From: a virus
DNA length: 64,000 nt
IMG/VR virus record: IMGVR_UViG_3300029258_002856
Strand: one strand, 5' to 3'
Position 1 is the first letter of the stretch; every line of letters begins with the position of its first letter. Below the pieces are notes generated by a model. That model saw only the letters and a program-made list of their open reading frames with translations, was not told the origin of the DNA and ran no database searches. This document shows positions 380 through 49,223 of this stretch, piece after piece. The position numbers were made by a program, and so were the translations under genes.

Positions 380-3300
380 ATGCCCGAACTTACGCCCATT
401 CTGGTGGACCCAGAGACCCGGCGCGACATGATTCGTGTCAAGGTCTTAGAGGGGTTGAAAGAGTCGTTTCCCCTCAAGGCCCGGAACCGCACTATCGAAG
501 TCGATAACCTCGAAGTCGATACGAAAGAATTCTCATCGACAGACCAGAAGAATGCTCTCTTGCGGGGGGACTCCCTCTTCGAGCGCGTGAAAGGGACGGT
601 TCGTCTCCGCGACAACAAGGGGAAGGTACTGAGCGAGGCATCGAACTTTACGCTAGCTCGCGTCCCATGGTTCACCCCACGCCACACCCTCATCGTAGGC
701 GGCAACGAGTACTCCATTTCCAACATGGTGCGTCCGAAGCCCGGCGTGTACGCACGAAAGCGTGCCAATGGGATTCTGGAAGCGAACTTCAACGTCGTGG
801 GCGGCGCGAACTTCAACGTGAGTATGGACCCCGAAAAGGGTGAACCGCAACTCGAGTACGGCGCGACGAAGGTACCCCTTTACCCCGTATTGCGGAGGGC
901 CGGGGTCAGCCACGAGCGTATCTCGAAAGCGTGGGGGAAGCAGCTGGCCGAAGCGAACTTCAAGAAGCTGTGGAAAAACTCGGGACGCACTATCGACAAG
1001 CTCTACGGGAAAGTCATTCCCGAGTACCGGCGCACTGCCGGTGCGGATACCGAGGCGAAGACGCGGGAAATATTTGCGCGTTACGCCGAAGCGAAGATGG
1101 ACCCCGACGTCAACCGTCAGACCCTCGGCAAGGGATACCGGGAAGTAACCCCCGACAGCCTGTTAGACGCCTCGGGGAAAGTCTTGCGCATCTTCAAGAA
1201 CGCGGACGAGATTGACGACCGGGATAACCTGGACTTCAAGTCCTTCCACTCCGTCGATGATTTCTTCAAAGAGCGTATCAAACTGGACGCACGAGAGATT
1301 GCGCGGAAGGCAGCAATCAAGTCCGAGTCGACTCCGGACGTGAAGCGTATCATCCCCCCTGGTCCGTTTACATCTGGCCTCGTGAAGTTCATCAATAGCT
1401 CCCAGCTTGCGTCAGTTCCTACGCAGACGAATCCCATGGAGCTCATTGACTCCGCGGTGCGCGTCACTTCCCTCGGGGAGGGTGGCATCTCGAGTGAGCG
1501 TGCGATTCCCATGGAAGCACGACAGGTACATGTCACCCAGATGGGAGCGTTGGACCCTATACGCACTCCTGAGTCTTTCCGGGCCGGGATCGATGTCCGC
1601 GCCGCGATGATGGCAAAGCGCGATGCGCGTGGAAACATCTACGTGCCCGTGCTGGACGCGAAAACGCGCCGGGGTAAGTACATCCGCGCAGGGGATTTGC
1701 AACGCTCGGTCGTCGCTTTTCCGGGACAACAGTTGAGGGGACAAGTAGAAGCCCTTGATAACGGTGAAATCAAACGCCTTGCAGCGTCGCGGGTTCAGTA
1801 CCAGATTCCACATGCTTCGGCACTCTATAGCCCCGCGACAAACCTGGTGCCGTTCCTCGAATCAGCACAAGGTAACCGGGCCATCATGGGTTCGAAGATG
1901 CAGGTTCAGGCCCTCTCTCTGGTGGGCCGAGAAGCTCCCATGGTCCAGGTCAAGTCGCAGACGGGGCCTACCTTCGAGCGCATCATGGGTGGGGTCATTA
2001 ACCCAGTCTCCCCGGTGTCTGGGGTGGTCAAGAAAATCGACAAGGACTACATCTACGTCCAACCGGACGGCGAGAAGACCGGAGCCAAGGGCAACAAGTA
2101 TGTAAAGATTCCGTATGAAACCAACTTTCCTCTCGCAGCCAAAACGTACCTTGACCACAAACTTGGAGTACAGAAAGGTGACAAGGTTTCTGCGGGTCAG
2201 CGCTTGGGCGAGTCCAACTTCACGGATAACGGGGTCCTGGCGCTGGGCAAGAATCTGCGCGTAGGCTTCATGGCTTATGACGGGGCGAACTCCAACGATG
2301 CCGTAGTCGTCAGTGAGGGCGGCGCGAAAAAGCTCACGTCCGAGCGCATGTACAAAATCGTGGTCCCTCGAGACCCGGACTTGACATTCAGCCGGGACAA
2401 GCACCGCACTTACTATGGACACGGATATACCAAGGACCAATACAAGCCTATCGATAAAGAAGGCGTGATTGCGCCGGGTACGCAGATTAATCCAGGTGAC
2501 CCCCTCGTCATGGGACTTCGCAAGACACAGCTCACCGCGGATGACGTACTTCTTGGACGGCTGCACAAGTCACTGGCGCGTCCGTTCCGTGAGAACGTAC
2601 ATGATTGGGACCATGACCACCCTGGCGAAGTCGTGGACGTCGTGAAGACGCCCAAGCGAATCGCCATTACTGTCAAGACACGAGAACCTGCTGGCATCGG
2701 AGACAAGGTTGCTGGGCGCTACGGCAATAAAGGGGTCATCTCGCAAATCGTTCCCGACGACCAGATGGTGCGAGACGAGAAGGATAGGCCTATCGACATC
2801 CTGATGACTCCCGCCGGGGTGGTATCTCGTATCAACCCGAGTCAGATTATCGAGACTGCCGTGGGGAAGGTCGCGGAGAAGACCGGAAAGCCGATTGCCG
2901 TAGAGAACTTCTCTGGGCGCAACAACGTTCAATGGGCCAAGGATTTACTCAAGAAACACGGACTCAAAGACAAGGAAACGGTGTACGACCCGCGTACCGG
3001 GCGCAAGATTCCCGGGGTGCTTGTTGGGCGGCAATATATCATGAAGCTCTTCAAGTCCACGGACACCAACTACTCAGCACGGGGCATCGAGAATTACGAC
3101 GTAAACCAGCAACCAGCTAAGGGGGGTACTCAGAGCGCCAAGGTGCTGGGTCGTATGGAGTTCGACGCGCTCCTCTCCCATGGAGCACGGAACGTCTTAC
3201 GAGAAGCCGCAACTCTGAAGAGCCAAAAGAATGACGAGTGGTGGCGCAACATGCAGCTCGGATACCCTACGCCACCTCCAAAGACCACTTTCGCTACTGA

Positions 3301-4732
3301 CAAGTTCCTTACGATGCTTACCGGGGCCGGAGTGCGCGTCGACCGGGAGAAGAACCAGCTTGCACTTGCCCCTCTCACGGACGCGGACACCTTGAAGCTC
3401 TCCTCAGGAGAAATCAAGGACGCCAAGTTGGTGCGTGCCAAGGACTTGAAGCCCGAGCGTGGCGGACTCTTCGACCCCGCAGTTACCGGGGGCGTTCGCG
3501 GAGGAAAATGGTCCCACGTCGCTTTAGCGGAGCCGGTGGTCAACCCCGTATTCCGTGACCCTGTTCGACGTCTCCTGGGGATGACTAACTCCCAACTAGA
3601 CCAGGCTATCCGGGAGAAGGGTGCGCGGCACATCAAGCGCGAACTCGGAAAGCTGGACCTGGATACCAGGGAAAAAGAACTCTACAAATCTCTCCGGGGA
3701 CGTAAAGGTTCTGCGCTGGATAACGATGTCAAGCAGCTCAAATATATCAAGGCTCTCAAGAAGCAGGGCCTCACTCCAGGTGACGCCTACGTCATTTCCA
3801 AAGTGCCAGTGGTGCCCCCAGTAGTGCGCCCAATCCTTCCCGGTAAAGGCGGCCAGGAACTCATCTACGGGGACATCAACCCTCTCTACCGCGACCTCGT
3901 GTACTTGAACAACCAGTTCAAAGATGTCAAGCAGTCCAAGCTGCTGCCCGACGAAGAGCAGCGTTTACGGCCTGCGTTGCAACAAGCAGTCGGGGCAGTT
4001 TACGGGGTAAATGACCCTATCACTGCCAAGTCCAAAGCGCGGGGGCACAAGGGGTTCCTCACATATATCTCCGGTAAGGGAAGTCCCAAGTTCGGGTACT
4101 TCCACTCTAAACTCATGCGCCGTACACAGGACGTATCTGGCCGCGGCACCATTGTTCCCGATGTAACGCTCGGCATGGATGAAGTGGGCCTCCCTGAAGA
4201 TATGCTGTGGTCCATGTACGGGAAATTCACCACCAAACGTCTGGTGGAGAAGGGTTACCAACCTCTTCAGGCCCAGCAGATGATTCAGGAGAAACATCCG
4301 GCTGCGCGAGAGGCGATGCTGCGAGAGGCCAAAGATAGGCCGGTGATGATTAACCGGGCTCCTACTCTTCACCGCTACAACATGATTGGGGCGTACGCCA
4401 GACCGATTCCGGGCAAGACCATTCGGGTCAATCCGTTCCTTGAGAAAGGAATGAACGCGGACTACGACGGCGATACGATGATGGTTCATGTGCCGGTGCA
4501 GTCCAAAGCTGTTGACGATGTGAAGAAGATGACGCTCTCCAACTTACTCTTCGGAGACAAGTCCCGGGATGAGCTCATGGTCTTCCCGCAGCACGAAGCC
4601 ATCATGGGTATCGCACATGCATCTGAGCAGGATTCCGGAGGCGTAGTTAAAAAATTTAAGACTCGGGGTGAAGCGATGAAGGCGTACCATGAAGGTAAAA
4701 TTGGATTAGGGACGCGAGTGAAAATAGGTTAG
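380..4732 (+). CDS. rpoB-rpoC(N): Phage multisubunit RNA polymerase: beta subunit fused to N-terminal/catalytic part of beta'
   Basis: Beta motifs: SLGEGGIS, GNRAIMGSKMQVQA, GDKVAGRYGNKGVIS, RINPSQ, GRMEFDALLSHGA. Beta' motifs follow: KPERGGLFDP, RTQDVSGRGTIVPD, NRAPTLHR and catalytic NADYDGD (nt 4454-4474). SD GGAGG. Confidence 0.95.
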   Translation: MPELTPILVDPETRRDMIRVKVLEGLKESFPLKARNRTIEVDNLEVDTKEFSSTDQKNALLRGDSLFERVKGTVRLRDNKGKVLSEASNFTLARVPWFTPRHTLIVGGNEYSISNMVRPKPGVYARKRANGILEANFNVVGGANFNVSMDPEKGEPQLEYGATKVPLYPVLRRAGVSHERISKAWGKQLAEANFKKLWKNSGRTIDKLYGKVIPEYRRTAGADTEAKTREIFARYAEAKMDPDVNRQTLGKGYREVTPDSLLDASGKVLRIFKNADEIDDRDNLDFKSFHSVDDFFKERIKLDAREIARKAAIKSESTPDVKRIIPPGPFTSGLVKFINSSQLASVPTQTNPMELIDSAVRVTSLGEGGISSERAIPMEARQVHVTQMGALDPIRTPESFRAGIDVRAAMMAKRDARGNIYVPVLDAKTRRGKYIRAGDLQRSVVAFPGQQLRGQVEALDNGEIKRLAASRVQYQIPHASALYSPATNLVPFLESAQGNRAIMGSKMQVQALSLVGREAPMVQVKSQTGPTFERIMGGVINPVSPVSGVVKKIDKDYIYVQPDGEKTGAKGNKYVKIPYETNFPLAAKTYLDHKLGVQKGDKVSAGQRLGESNFTDNGVLALGKNLRVGFMAYDGANSNDAVVVSEGGAKKLTSERMYKIVVPRDPDLTFSRDKHRTYYGHGYTKDQYKPIDKEGVIAPGTQINPGDPLVMGLRKTQLTADDVLLGRLHKSLARPFRENVHDWDHDHPGEVVDVVKTPKRIAITVKTREPAGIGDKVAGRYGNKGVISQIVPDDQMVRDEKDRPIDILMTPAGVVSRINPSQIIETAVGKVAEKTGKPIAVENFSGRNNVQWAKDLLKKHGLKDKETVYDPRTGRKIPGVLVGRQYIMKLFKSTDTNYSARGIENYDVNQQPAKGGTQSAKVLGRMEFDALLSHGARNVLREAATLKSQKNDEWWRNMQLGYPTPPPKTTFATDKFLTMLTGAGVRVDREKNQLALAPLTDADTLKLSSGEIKDAKLVRAKDLKPERGGLFDPAVTGGVRGGKWSHVALAEPVVNPVFRDPVRRLLGMTNSQLDQAIREKGARHIKRELGKLDLDTREKELYKSLRGRKGSALDNDVKQLKYIKALKKQGLTPGDAYVISKVPVVPPVVRPILPGKGGQELIYGDINPLYRDLVYLNNQFKDVKQSKLLPDEEQRLRPALQQAVGAVYGVNDPITAKSKARGHKGFLTYISGKGSPKFGYFHSKLMRRTQDVSGRGTIVPDVTLGMDEVGLPEDMLWSMYGKFTTKRLVEKGYQPLQAQQMIQEKHPAAREAMLREAKDRPVMINRAPTLHRYNMIGAYARPIPGKTIRVNPFLEKGMNADYDGDTMMVHVPVQSKAVDDVKKMTLSNLLFGDKSRDELMVFPQHEAIMGIAHASEQDSGGVVKKFKTRGEAMKAYHEGKIGLGTRVKIG

Positions 4733-39354: not shown

Positions 39355-39560
39355 TAGCTACGTCCCCCCGGGGGCGTTCTACATAGGACAAGCGGTGCGT
39401 GGAACAAGGGTTTGCTCGGCACCCTAAGCCGTAGGCCGGTCCGGAGCGGTCATAGCAATTCATCTGCATCGAAGACGATGTATACCTCTCGACTGCTAAT
39501 CGAGAACTGGACATTTAATCCAGAGAAAAAGTGGGTTTTCCGGGAGCCAAAAAACCGGAC

Positions 39561-39650
39561 GAACTCCGACTAGATGAATTCCGACCTTCCGACTAACCCT
39601 GATTACCCGAATACGCAGAACAGCTGAACTTCGAGTAACAGAACTCCGAC
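39561..39650 (+). repeat. Cluster of short direct repeats GAAyTCCGAC
   Basis: GAACTCCGAC 39561, GAATTCCGAC 39576, TTCCGAC 39587, GAACTTCGAG 39626, GAACTCCGAC 39641. Confidence 0.55.
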
Positions 39651-39683
39651 TCACCACGTTCCGGCCGCTTTGTCCGTCTCTAT

Positions 39684-39719
39684 GCACTCTCTCCTTCACC
39701 GGGGGGAGTGCTCTTTTTT
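39684..39719 (+). terminator. Hairpin plus U-tract just upstream of tRNA-Gln
   Basis: GCACTCTCTCC/GGGGGGAGTGC stem with G-U pairs, followed by TCTTTTTT. Confidence 0.55.
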
Positions 39720-39723
39720 CCTC

Positions 39724-39795
39724 TGGGGCATCGACCAGTGGCCAGGTCACGGGCTTTTGGTGCCCGCTACGAAGGTTCGAGTCCTTCTGCCCCAG
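39724..39795 (+). tRNA. tRNA-Gln(UUG)
   Basis: Acceptor TGGGGCA/TGCCCCA; anticodon arm CGGGC-TTTTGGT-GCCCG; T-loop TTCGAGT; followed by CCG rather than CCA. Confidence 0.9.
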
Positions 39796-39797
39796 CC

Positions 39798-40171
39798 GGA
39801 TGCTAGAGCCTGGAGAGGCAACCGTCAGCTAGCTGACCCAGGTTTGCTGAACAGGCCGGGGAGTAACTCCCCAAAGGGCACAGGAGTCGCCCCAACCGAA
39901 ACACCTTGGAAGGAAGTCCTCTCACCGGGAGGCTCTACCCACTCGGACAATTAGCCATCCCGAGTGAGAAGGACCCCTTCCGGCGTACGCGTAGTAGCAT
40001 CCATGCAGACGTCGGAACTCTCGCACCTCGAGGGTCGGGAAGTAACTTCCCACGAGACGCGCAGCAACTAACTGCGCTTGAACATTGGCGACAGCTTAGG
40101 CTGCGGAGAGGTCCGCTATGCTTCCCTACCTTGCCTCAGCTTCTGCCAAAGTAAACACAGTGACGTCTGCA
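39798..40171 (+). ncRNA. Two-domain structured ncRNA candidate between tRNA-Gln and tRNA-Glu
   Basis: Domain 1 is closed by GGATGCTA/TAGCATCC (39798-40002) and domain 2 by TGCAGACGTC/GACGTCTGCA (40004-40171). Many internal hairpins; no convincing ORF. Confidence 0.6.
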
Positions 40172-40174
40172 CCT

Positions 40175-40248
40175 GACTCCATCGTCTAGTCCGGTCAGGA
40201 CACTGGCCTTTCACGCCAGTAACACGGGTTCAAATCCCGTTGGAGTCA
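40175..40248 (+). tRNA. tRNA-Glu(UUC)
   Basis: Acceptor GACTCCA/TGGAGTC; anticodon arm CTGGC-CTTTCAC-GCCAG; T-loop TTCAAAT; followed by CCG. Confidence 0.9.
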
Positions 40249-40428
40249 CCGCGGCAGTGGGTCATGGAAACGTCAGGCTGGGATGCGGAGCGGGACGGGT
40301 ATACTGCCGCTCAGGGGTTTTCTTCTGTGCCCGTCCCCACCTTTCACGTTGGTCCGCGCTGGGTTTGGGACCTCGGAAACATAATACAATCCCGGTACAC
40401 CCAGCACATTTCCCAACAGGAAAAACCA

Positions 40429-40824
40429 ATGGCCTACATAATCGGAGAACCAATCATCGAGGTCTGTGCCGGAGGGGTGCACGGGGGTACCCTCCTCCGT
40501 GTCCGCTTCCCGGTGAAAGACACCCACGTAGATGAGATTCACTACCGGGGCTGCGAAATCGAACTTCACCCCGAACAACTCTGGATGTTGAACAAGGACG
40601 GGGTGCCCCCACGCTTTGCTCCAAAAGTTCTCCCCCCGATAGCAGTGACAGAAGACATGTACGGTGACACTCTTGTGCTCTCTGCTGACGTTGTTCATGA
40701 GGTCAAACAGCACCTCAATCGTCTAGGGCTCGTCCCGGAAGAAATGGACCAGCATGCCCTCCAAGAGATAAAGAACGCCGTTGCCGAGCGGCTCGTAAAA
40801 GAGAAGTACGGAGAGAAGAAATGA
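40429..40824 (+). CDS. Hypothetical protein
   Basis: ATG 40429 with SD AGGA; the track start at 40240 overlaps tRNA-Glu. Confidence 0.65.
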   Translation: MAYIIGEPIIEVCAGGVHGGTLLRVRFPVKDTHVDEIHYRGCEIELHPEQLWMLNKDGVPPRFAPKVLPPIAVTEDMYGDTLVLSADVVHEVKQHLNRLGLVPEEMDQHALQEIKNAVAERLVKEKYGEKK

Positions 40825-41873: not shown

Positions 41874-42150
41874 AGCCAGCTTCTATCCAATCACTCCTCG
41901 GGTCCAGAAGCTCTACGACTACTTGGCTGAAAAGTTGATAGAATCCTTCTTCGAACGGAGAGTAGGAAACAACGGACTCCCCTACTACGTGGTACGGCTA
42001 CGAATGATTCCCCAAGGCGCGTATGCTGACCTCATTTATCCGGAGGCTGAACGCCTCGCTCAAGACAACGGTTTGATGTTGGGGGGCGGTCCAACCTGCA
42101 TCTGCAATGGCATAGTAACCTCTGCCGACTGGGTTATAATTCCCGCATGA
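41860..42150 (+). CDS. Small protein, dispersed paralog family
   Basis: DYLAEK...YADLIYPEAERLAQDNGL. Confidence 0.65.
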   Translation: MDMSKASFYPITPRVQKLYDYLAEKLIESFFERRVGNNGLPYYVVRLRMIPQGAYADLIYPEAERLAQDNGLMLGGGPTCICNGIVTSADWVIIPA

Positions 42151-42539
42151 ATACAGCAAGCAAACACGTCATCGTCGAACTCTGGAACTGCAACACGGAC
42201 TTTCTCGAGGACGGGGAGTACATCGAGAAGTGCCTCCGCAGCATCGCCGCAGTCATCGACGTCACGCCAATCACCTACACACACCACAACTACGACCCGC
42301 AGGGGTACACGGGGATTCTCGTCATTGAAGAGTCCCACATCGTAATTCACACGTGGCCCGAACATCGCTATGCTACAGTGGATGTCTTCACCTGTGGGGA
42401 GAAAGACCCCAAGGTCGTGGGGCCGGTGCTGAAGGAGTTTTTCGAGGCCAAGGAAGCAGGCGTCCTCAGCCTGACCCGGGGCAACCGCAACGGTATCGGG
42501 ATAGTGTGCCACCATGTGAACGGGCACGGTTTTCTGTAG
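42147..42539 (+). CDS. speD: S-adenosylmethionine decarboxylase proenzyme (pyruvoyl-dependent, class 1B-like)
   Basis: KHVIVELWNC; GYTGILVIEESHIVIHTWPE with ES autocleavage site; VDVFTCG. Confidence 0.9.
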   Translation: MNTASKHVIVELWNCNTDFLEDGEYIEKCLRSIAAVIDVTPITYTHHNYDPQGYTGILVIEESHIVIHTWPEHRYATVDVFTCGEKDPKVVGPVLKEFFEAKEAGVLSLTRGNRNGIGIVCHHVNGHGFL

Positions 42540-47622: not shown

Positions 47623-47694
47623 GCCTCTATAGTTCAACTGGTAGAGCAGGAGGTTTCAATCTCTTAGTTCCAGGTTCGAGTCCTGGTGGAGGCG
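47623..47694 (+). tRNA. Atypical tRNA-Trp-like gene with TCA triplet in a 6-nt anticodon loop
   Basis: Acceptor GCCTCTA/TGGAGGC; D-arm GTTC-AACTGGTA-GAGC; T-arm CCAGG-TTCGAGT-CCTGG; discriminator G; anticodon stem GGAGG/TCTCT with loop TTTCAA. Confidence 0.7.
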
Positions 47695-47715
47695 CTCAAC
47701 CAAAAGGAGAACACA

Positions 47716-48536: not shown

Positions 48537-48950
48537 GAGAAGCCGTGCCCAAAGTTAGACCCCGCAGAGCAATTCGCTGGTCGAATATCTCCCACTCGAC
48601 TCTTGTCGAAGGAATTCGGAAGACCTCCTCTCCCGGAGGTTAGAAGGTTCCAGGGGGCTCTCAACGGGAGCAGTGGCGTAACGTCACGACATTGTGCTTT
48701 ATCTGGCTGCATTATTCAATGCTCGCACCCAGTGTCCCGCGGGAGCTCGAAGGTTTTTATTCCTTCAGACCCCTCGAGATTCCAAGGTACGACCAGGTAG
48801 AACCACACTACGCATGCACGGAGTGCTTCGATTGAACCCGACAAAGGCCGCACCTTGAAACCGTCGAGACGCCTGAAGAAATAAAAACCTTCGAGCTCCC
48901 ACGGGACACTGGGTCACGGCCTCGCATCGAGTAACGTGGCACGGCTTCTC
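48537..48950. ncRNA. Nested inverted-repeat element (13-bp outer IR enclosing a 41-bp stem)
   Basis: GAGAAGCCGTGCC 48537-48549 / GGCACGGCTTCTC 48938-48950; stem 48728-48768 / 48873-48913 pairs at 39 of 41 positions. Confidence 0.65.
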
Positions 48951-49223
48951 TCTTTTAATAAAAAACGCACTAGAGTCTACGCTGTACAGACGCGGAGCGT
49001 AACGCTCCTCAAGACGTGGCCATCTGGACCACGTTAGCCCTCGCTCCTCCTCGAGACCTCTGGCCTTGCGCCCTACGTTCTCGAGGCTCTGCTACCGGGC
49101 AATCCCGTAGTAGCGAGATCAGGCGAAACCATCCGAACAACGAACAATGACTTCTGGTCTCACCTTCCCTGGCTCACTCAGTAGTGCGTTTATTACTACA
49201 ATTCTCTAAACGAGGATTCCGAT

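Follow-up and report, generated by a model that had tools for sequence, protein, structure and literature searches.

A putative family of stalk-closed RNA modules found among the tRNAs and genes of uncultured large phages

What does a phage encode within a non-coding spacer of 377 bases (39798-40174) that separates one of its tRNA genes from the next? Phage tRNA clusters, beginning with that of T4, are known to hide small RNAs of unknown role. The spacer considered here is from a 64,000-nt stretch of viral DNA, referred to as the window, and its flanking genes are, as had been claimed, a tRNA-Gln(UUG) at 39724-39797 and a tRNA-Glu(UUC) at 40175-40250, both on the plus strand and both called by ARAGORN as well as by Rfam. 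Between these the original prediction placed two self-contained structured RNAs, the first of them starting 3 nt after tRNA-Gln and the second closed by a helix that ends 3 nt before tRNA-Glu. The latter spacing is what is seen, with the stalk of the second domain (dom2) extending to 40171. The first domain (dom1) begins instead directly after the encoded CC of tRNA-Gln, i.e., 2 nt after that tRNA's discriminator base, G39795.

The spacer as a whole has a minimum free energy (MFE) of -166.1 kcal/mol versus -127.7 +/- 6.1 kcal/mol in dinucleotide shuffles (z = -6.3), and when z-scores are taken by sliding along 30-52 kb, the segments that cover the spacer are among the most negative. Folded separately, dom1 and dom2 possess z-scores of -6.5 and -3.7, respectively, and the two remain separate domains upon co-folding with both tRNAs. 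The idea of two self-contained structured domains is thus borne out. Every helix that had been listed for these domains is also present where it had been placed, and pairing probability exceeds 0.95 for the closing helices along with GUCAG/CUGAC, GGGGAG/CUCCCC, GGGAAG/CUUCCC, and GCGCAG/CUGCGC. For the CCUGG/CCAGG, CACUCGG/CCGAGUG, and CAGC/GCUG helices, however, as well as for a helix (UAGAGCCU/AGGCUCUA) thought to compete with the dom1 closing stalk, probabilities are about zero, and forcing them costs in the range of +4.6 to +16 kcal/mol. These alternative pairings, that is, are predicted to be thermodynamically non-competitive.

Codon usage in the spacer is non-coding, with log-likelihoods per codon of -0.06 to -0.34 as compared with +0.23 to +0.57 for the training genes and for five of six small genes, which rules out a coding reading. 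Nor is this a catalogued RNA. A cmscan of 39798-40174 against Rfam 15 using lax filters, where the families covered include GOLLD, ROOL, tmRNA, RNase P, Y RNA/YrlA, RtT, and ribozymes, returned no family match even at E<=10, and the novelty with respect to Rfam that had been supposed accordingly held up. Additional identities were considered and then set aside. A resemblance to RNase P RNA is limited to the length of 377 nt and a GGAAGUCC string, and no Rfam RNase P match was obtained. An antisense role was dropped, with complementarity within the window not above chance, as too was a DUF7873-linked double tRNA-mimic RNA, there being no such protein among the 75 open reading frames (ORFs) of the window and no T-loop.

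Both domains instead can be described in terms of a common module plan, consisting of a closing stalk (P1), a P2 hairpin, a P3 hairpin, a P4 hairpin, a long and irregular P5, and then closure, with modules ranging in size from 170 to 250 nt and present in three or four copies per genome. P1 is 7 to 11 bp in length, with a G found right after its 5' strand and an AG right before its 3' strand, and this G...AG junction is present in all nine modules described here. P3, which is second in order among the hairpins, is 15 nt long and consists of 6 bp, the innermost of which is G-C, that are capped by a UWA triloop. That triloop is UAA in all copies found in the window and UUA in all copies found in two relatives.

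In dom1 (39798-40002, plus strand), P1 pairs 39798-39805 with 39995-40002, and its junction reads GGAUGCUA followed by GA (39806-07) and, on the other side, AG (39993-94) followed by UAGCAUCC. P2 (39808-39856) is expanded and branched, P3 (39858-39872, plus strand) is GGGGAG-UAA-CUCCCC, P4 is found at 39876-39892, and P5 extends from approximately 39895 to 39990. Dom2 (40004-40171, plus strand) has a P1 of 40004-40014/40161-40171, and there the junction is UGCAGACGUCG then GA (40015-16), with AG (40159-60) then UGACGUCUGCA. Its P2 is at 40017-40035, its P3, GGGAAG-UAA-CUUCCC, at 40037-40051 (plus strand), its P4 at 40059-40077, and its P5 at 40082-40152. The P4 and long, irregular P5 of dom1 and dom2 are as seen in MFE folds, and their basis in these two modules is thermodynamic. 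Aligning dom1 with dom2 reveals nothing in common beyond P3 and the junctions.

Is the plan found beyond this one spacer? A census of the window's plus strand for N5-GUAAC-N5' hairpins yields four, all of them in two non-coding loci next to tRNAs, versus a chance expectation of about 0.04 as based on the 39 GTAAC sites of the 64-kb window. The second locus supplies a third window member, domY (48963-49191, plus strand), which is located downstream of tRNA-Lys, has a P1 of AAACGCACUA/UAGUGCGUUU, and has as its P3 GGAGCG-UAA-CGCUCC (48994-49008, plus strand). DomX (48537-48950, plus strand; z = -9.7) possesses a 13-bp closing stalk, a 41-bp hairpin, and the hairpin GUGGC-GUAAC-GUCAC with its one G-U pair (48673-48687, plus strand). 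The G/AG junction is missing from domX, the covariance model described below does not match it, and it is considered here as a possible variant of the family.

The window is of a large phage having a fused beta/beta' RNA polymerase (380-4732), the product of which is a single 1450-aa protein with RNA polymerase beta (Rpb2) and beta' (Rpb1) domains. The nearest isolates, Salmonella phage Arash, as described in PMC10585845, and Vibrio phages D69, D148, and D181, are very distant, at about 36% amino-acid identity. A related IMG/VR phage, L001, was reached instead by way of a 131-aa protein that in the window is encoded at 40429-40824 (about 40% identity). The same census in L001 finds three 15-nt hairpins, now with GUUAC, each of them second in order among the hairpins of a domain closed by a stalk, and these domains have z-scores of -5.2, -6.8, and -7.6 (modules L001a to L001c). 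MAFFT alignment of the 5' parts of modules shows recognizable similarity in ACUAGA, in the P3 frame, and in the AGACG that follows P3. A covariance model, R3, was trained on the 5' parts of dom2, domY, and L001a-c, so as to cover the P1 5' strand, P2, and P3, and this model finds three members not used in training, all in the record of a second relative, L002 (34.1, 27, and 25.9 bits). In total there are about nine modules in three related phages, three in the window and six in two related IMG/VR phages. Dom2, itself a training sequence, scores 52.5 bits and is a typical member of the family. With dom1, R3 matches P3 only (13.2 bits, E = 0.5) because dom1 P2 is expanded and branched. Dom1 does show every feature that can be checked by hand, and it is upon these manually checked features that its membership rests.

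Three metagenomic phages, or perhaps four, are known to carry the family, and the route to each of them was a single neighbouring protein. The potential fourth is L035, where the R3 match is weak (15.5 bits) and lacks a clear stalk, so that it is no more than a possible member. No match to R3 is found in phage Arash, in Vibrio phage D69, or in 22 further IMG/VR records. Single-sequence models built from dom2 (R1) and from dom1 (R2) were applied to the window, to eight loci, and to 24 IMG/VR records, and below E = 0.05 they matched their own sequences and nothing else. BLAST of the spacer region against GenBank phages matched a tRNA and nothing else, and against 21 records BLAST of the spacer matched nothing. 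Within IMG/VR, the hairpin pattern CGGGRAGTAACTYCCCA gave five chance matches, none near a tRNA, and an anchor pattern from a conserved upstream element gave zero matches. A metagenome scan using the neighbouring protein recovered the same distant relatives and no others. Closer relatives are found in ENA ERZ234983xx (ERZ23498357, ERZ23498361, and ERZ23498365), with flanking proteins of 79-97% amino-acid identity, and a more distant one in Logan SRR7615342, with flanking proteins of 54% amino-acid identity. The 12-kb contig of the Logan relative has gaps of 0.9 and 2 kb in which no genes are found.

Covariation among homologues, which the original prediction had put forward as a check, is seen across the nine related modules for P1, P2, and P3. 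Particularly, in the alignment of nine sequences 96.6% of cells are paired, versus 78.9% upon shuffling (with 0 of 500 shuffles reaching the observed value) and about 50% with slid partners. Pairing of P3 is complete (100%) across the nine, with compensatory changes in four of its six pairs, and P2 shows double changes in 4/4 pairs. The inner cells of P1 are paired in 63 of 63 cases, versus 62% with deranged partners, and compensatory changes are found at all seven P1 positions. G-U pairs in P1 and P2 fit an RNA of the plus strand only. P1, P2, and P3 thus constitute a conserved, covarying RNA fold that is found on the coding strand. In terms of P5, comparison of orthologous modules between L001 and the L002 record (pairs b/d and c/c2) shows the P5 base to be kept through 11 (b/d) and 4 (c/c2) double changes, even as the distal P5 is replaced in both pairs. 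Covariation of the P5 base is a property seen in these orthologues of the relatives, with P4 and P5 of dom1 and dom2 supported thermodynamically.

What might such modules be? The preferred reading, which is given a probability of roughly one half, is that dom1 and dom2 are paralogous copies belonging to an uncatalogued family of stalk-closed, five-helix RNA modules, one that is multi-copy in a clade of uncultured large phages. Of the one or two possibly novel non-coding RNAs originally envisaged, what stands is that the domains are structured, non-coding, and absent from Rfam. Rather than two unrelated singletons, they are best viewed as two paralogous members of one family. Transcription of the modules would run in the direction of the adjacent tRNAs and genes, with dom1-dom2 being co-transcribed with the tRNAs and then released either as one stable RNA or as two. 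Such release would combine cleavage by RNase P where tRNA-Glu begins with the trimming of tRNA-Gln by tRNA 3'-end processing, and the stalks may shield the resulting RNA ends from exonucleases. P3 could then serve as the docking site of one shared partner, differing between phages and most likely a phage protein. A P3 triloop that is uniform within a phage and different between phages suggests one partner per phage, though inheritance within each lineage could explain that pattern as well.

The settings of these modules are consistent with release in some cases and count against it in others. Dom1, dom2, L001a, and L001b sit 0 to 3 nt from tRNA ends, and in L001 one module begins 0 nt after tRNA-Thr while another ends 1 nt before tRNA-Leu. 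Other modules are found between genes, not adjoining tRNAs, and near stop codons and ribosome-binding sites. Counting against the proposed release are these several members that are located away from tRNAs and, in the window, a hairpin plus U run resembling an intrinsic terminator (39684-39721, plus strand) that ends just upstream of tRNA-Gln. Given that hairpin, transcription of the tRNA-module unit requires either read-through or an unrecognized promoter, and no promoter for that unit was recognized. The modules do not occupy syntenic positions in the window and in its relatives. In L001, for example, tRNA-Gln directly precedes the orthologue of the gene that begins at 40429, so that dom1-dom2-tRNA-Glu represents an insertion or rearrangement in the lineage of the window.

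The main rival to release of free RNAs, itself rather improbable, is that the modules act purely in cis, as processing, stability, or insulation elements of polycistronic transcripts and with no free functional RNA. They would then keep folding units apart, block exonucleases, and in places pair a Shine-Dalgarno sequence into P1 so as to control translation, a role similar to that played in T7 by the RNase III sites that separate its genes, or in rRNA operons by the leader-trailer stalks. Consistent with this, L001b and the d and e modules of the relative G002 start 1 to 5 nt after stop codons and fill whole intergenic gaps. Furthermore, the P1 3' strand of L001c and that of its orthologue c2 overlap the GAAGGAGG / GGGAGG ribosome-binding site of the next small gene (L001 11937-11957; L042 1300-1316, minus strand). 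This arrangement, kept in both phages, suggests that c-type modules control translation of that gene, and a stalk over the next gene's Shine-Dalgarno in these two members fits a cis-acting role better than it does a free RNA. A barrier or cleavage site, however, needs neither five helices nor a conserved junction nor a P3 with the same loop in each copy, and dom1 and dom2, found as they are between two tRNAs, have no mRNA to regulate. Quite unlikely, by comparison, is that a new phage ribonucleoprotein system has the modules as its RNA subunits, or else that they are retron-like templates lacking a linked reverse transcriptase. As ribonucleoprotein subunits they would present variable P5 'cargo' hairpins upon a constant scaffold (the P1 junction plus P3), to be read by one phage-specific protein, and might act as guides or decoys against host defences that target RNA or tRNA. 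If the modules truly are a scaffold plus a variable arm, then they would represent a new class of phage RNA tools.

The remaining readings are less likely. Retron non-coding RNAs possess an inverted-repeat stalk whose 5' strand is directly followed by a G, then short hairpins and one long hairpin, and the modules could be imagined as msr-msd RNAs of this type, i.e., as templates for a reverse transcriptase that is encoded elsewhere, by phage or host, or as decoys against host retron defences. The modules have that textbook layout, a G immediately follows the P1 5' strand in nine of nine, and domX has its 41-bp hairpin. The idea is nevertheless very unlikely to be correct: a search for RVT_1 that encompassed the window, G001, and G002, all three being partial genomes, found no such domain among the 75 ORFs of the window nor in the relatives' 33-kb and 78-kb records, and retron RNAs normally are single-copy and adjacent to their reverse transcriptase, whereas the modules are multi-copy and lie inside tRNA arrays and between genes. 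Boundaries that are flush with tRNA ends, along with a junction that is kept in every module, might point toward a new class of self-cleaving ribozyme, one cutting at the module edge and thereby defining the ends of neighbouring tRNAs or mRNAs. Conserved nucleotides are very few for a catalytic core, however, P5 is freely replaced between orthologues, and no known ribozyme family in Rfam is matched, making this highly improbable. Just as doubtful is that no RNA function exists, with the modules instead being either DNA-level elements (a miniature inverted-repeat mobile element, an origin, or a recombination site) or decayed remnants of a tRNA or tmRNA. The lack of synteny would fit with this, as too would the presence in relatives of a true tmRNA a short way upstream of tRNA-Glu. 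Those tmRNAs, found between tRNA-Met and tRNA-Glu (L001 3490-3875 and L002 3919-4304; Rfam, 114.7 and 110.5 bits), are called with ease by both ARAGORN and Rfam, and at 386 nt they are similar in length to the 377-nt spacer. The same two tools find no tmRNA in the 64-kb window, however, and the spacer contains no tRNA-like domain, T-loop, tag reading frame, or tRNA match; no tmRNA match is obtained for it at E<=10, and by BLAST it resembles nothing in the tmRNA region of the relatives. In addition, the G-U pairs of P1 and P2 work in plus-strand RNA only, the copies are highly diverged, and the stalks vary at their outer ends and are conserved at their inner ends, which is the opposite of transposon terminal repeats.

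Returning to modules as a family of RNAs, these may be compared with what is known of RNAs that are associated with tRNA genes. E. coli RtT RNA and tRNA-spacer small RNAs of the 3'ETS-leuZ type are freed from tRNA operon transcripts by tRNA processing. The Rfam RtT model gives no match here, however, and no common module architecture is seen in these bacterial examples. Among phages, T4 encodes RNAC and RNAD, which are small non-tRNA RNAs of unknown role found within its tRNA cluster and on the tRNA strand (PMC3014915). Dom1 and dom2 likewise are encoded within a tRNA cluster and on the tRNA strand, and the likeness is one of setting. Unlike RNAC and RNAD, the modules are larger (170-250 nt), follow a defined five-helix plan, are found as three or four copies per genome, and are also located away from tRNAs. 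GOLLD and ROOL are structured RNAs of phages and prophages, of unknown function, that often lie near tRNA islands, as the original prediction had stated and as is reported in PMC12286853. Their Rfam models find no match in the spacer, and the modules are three to four times smaller and differ in architecture. That phage tRNA clusters encode RNAs other than tRNAs is a known phenomenon, and within it the modules are regarded here as a new RNA family. One type of RNA from such clusters now has a defined architecture with covariation support and with several copies per genome, and the P3 loop, uniform per phage and different between phages, provides a concrete experimental handle, i.e., with P3 as bait and the stalk as processing site.

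Sequences to either side of the tRNA pair are also conserved. The non-coding stretch upstream of tRNA-Gln (39386-39719) has a counterpart in the relative L040 (900-1290), where the upstream protein is 50% identical. Two blocks, AGCGGUGCGYGGAACAAGG and CCACGUUCCGGCCGC, are common to both. Repeats of UCCGAC/UCCGAU are also found in the stretch, which in the window has the terminator at its end. The L040 counterpart surrounds a remnant that resembles a tRNA and leads directly into a gene, with neither tRNA-Gln nor a module. Downstream, the spacer that follows tRNA-Glu (40251-40428) is homologous to the one following tRNA-Asp in L001 (6545-6711), with GAUGCGGAG, CGUUGGUCCGCNCUGGGU..GGGACC, and CGGUACACCCAG as conserved blocks. 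This element, found once per genome piece, may be a promoter or regulatory element.

Elsewhere in the window, a Pfam tally of the 75 ORFs includes LigD-type primase-polymerase and 3'-phosphoesterase domains, an S-adenosylmethionine decarboxylase (42147-42539), and a PAS-domain protein. A tRNA-like gene at 47623-47695, which Rfam scores at 52.7 bits, contains UCA in an anticodon loop that is abnormal. ARAGORN assigns it no anticodon, and it may be an opal-reading or frameshift-type tRNA. In the relatives, the tmRNA has conserved structured spacers on both sides. Following tRNA-Met, L002 possesses about 225 extra bases that are missing from L001 (L002 3546-3790 versus L001 3344-3360), and these include a domain with a perfect closing stalk of 21 bp, i.e., a structured block that is present in one and absent from the other of two close phages.
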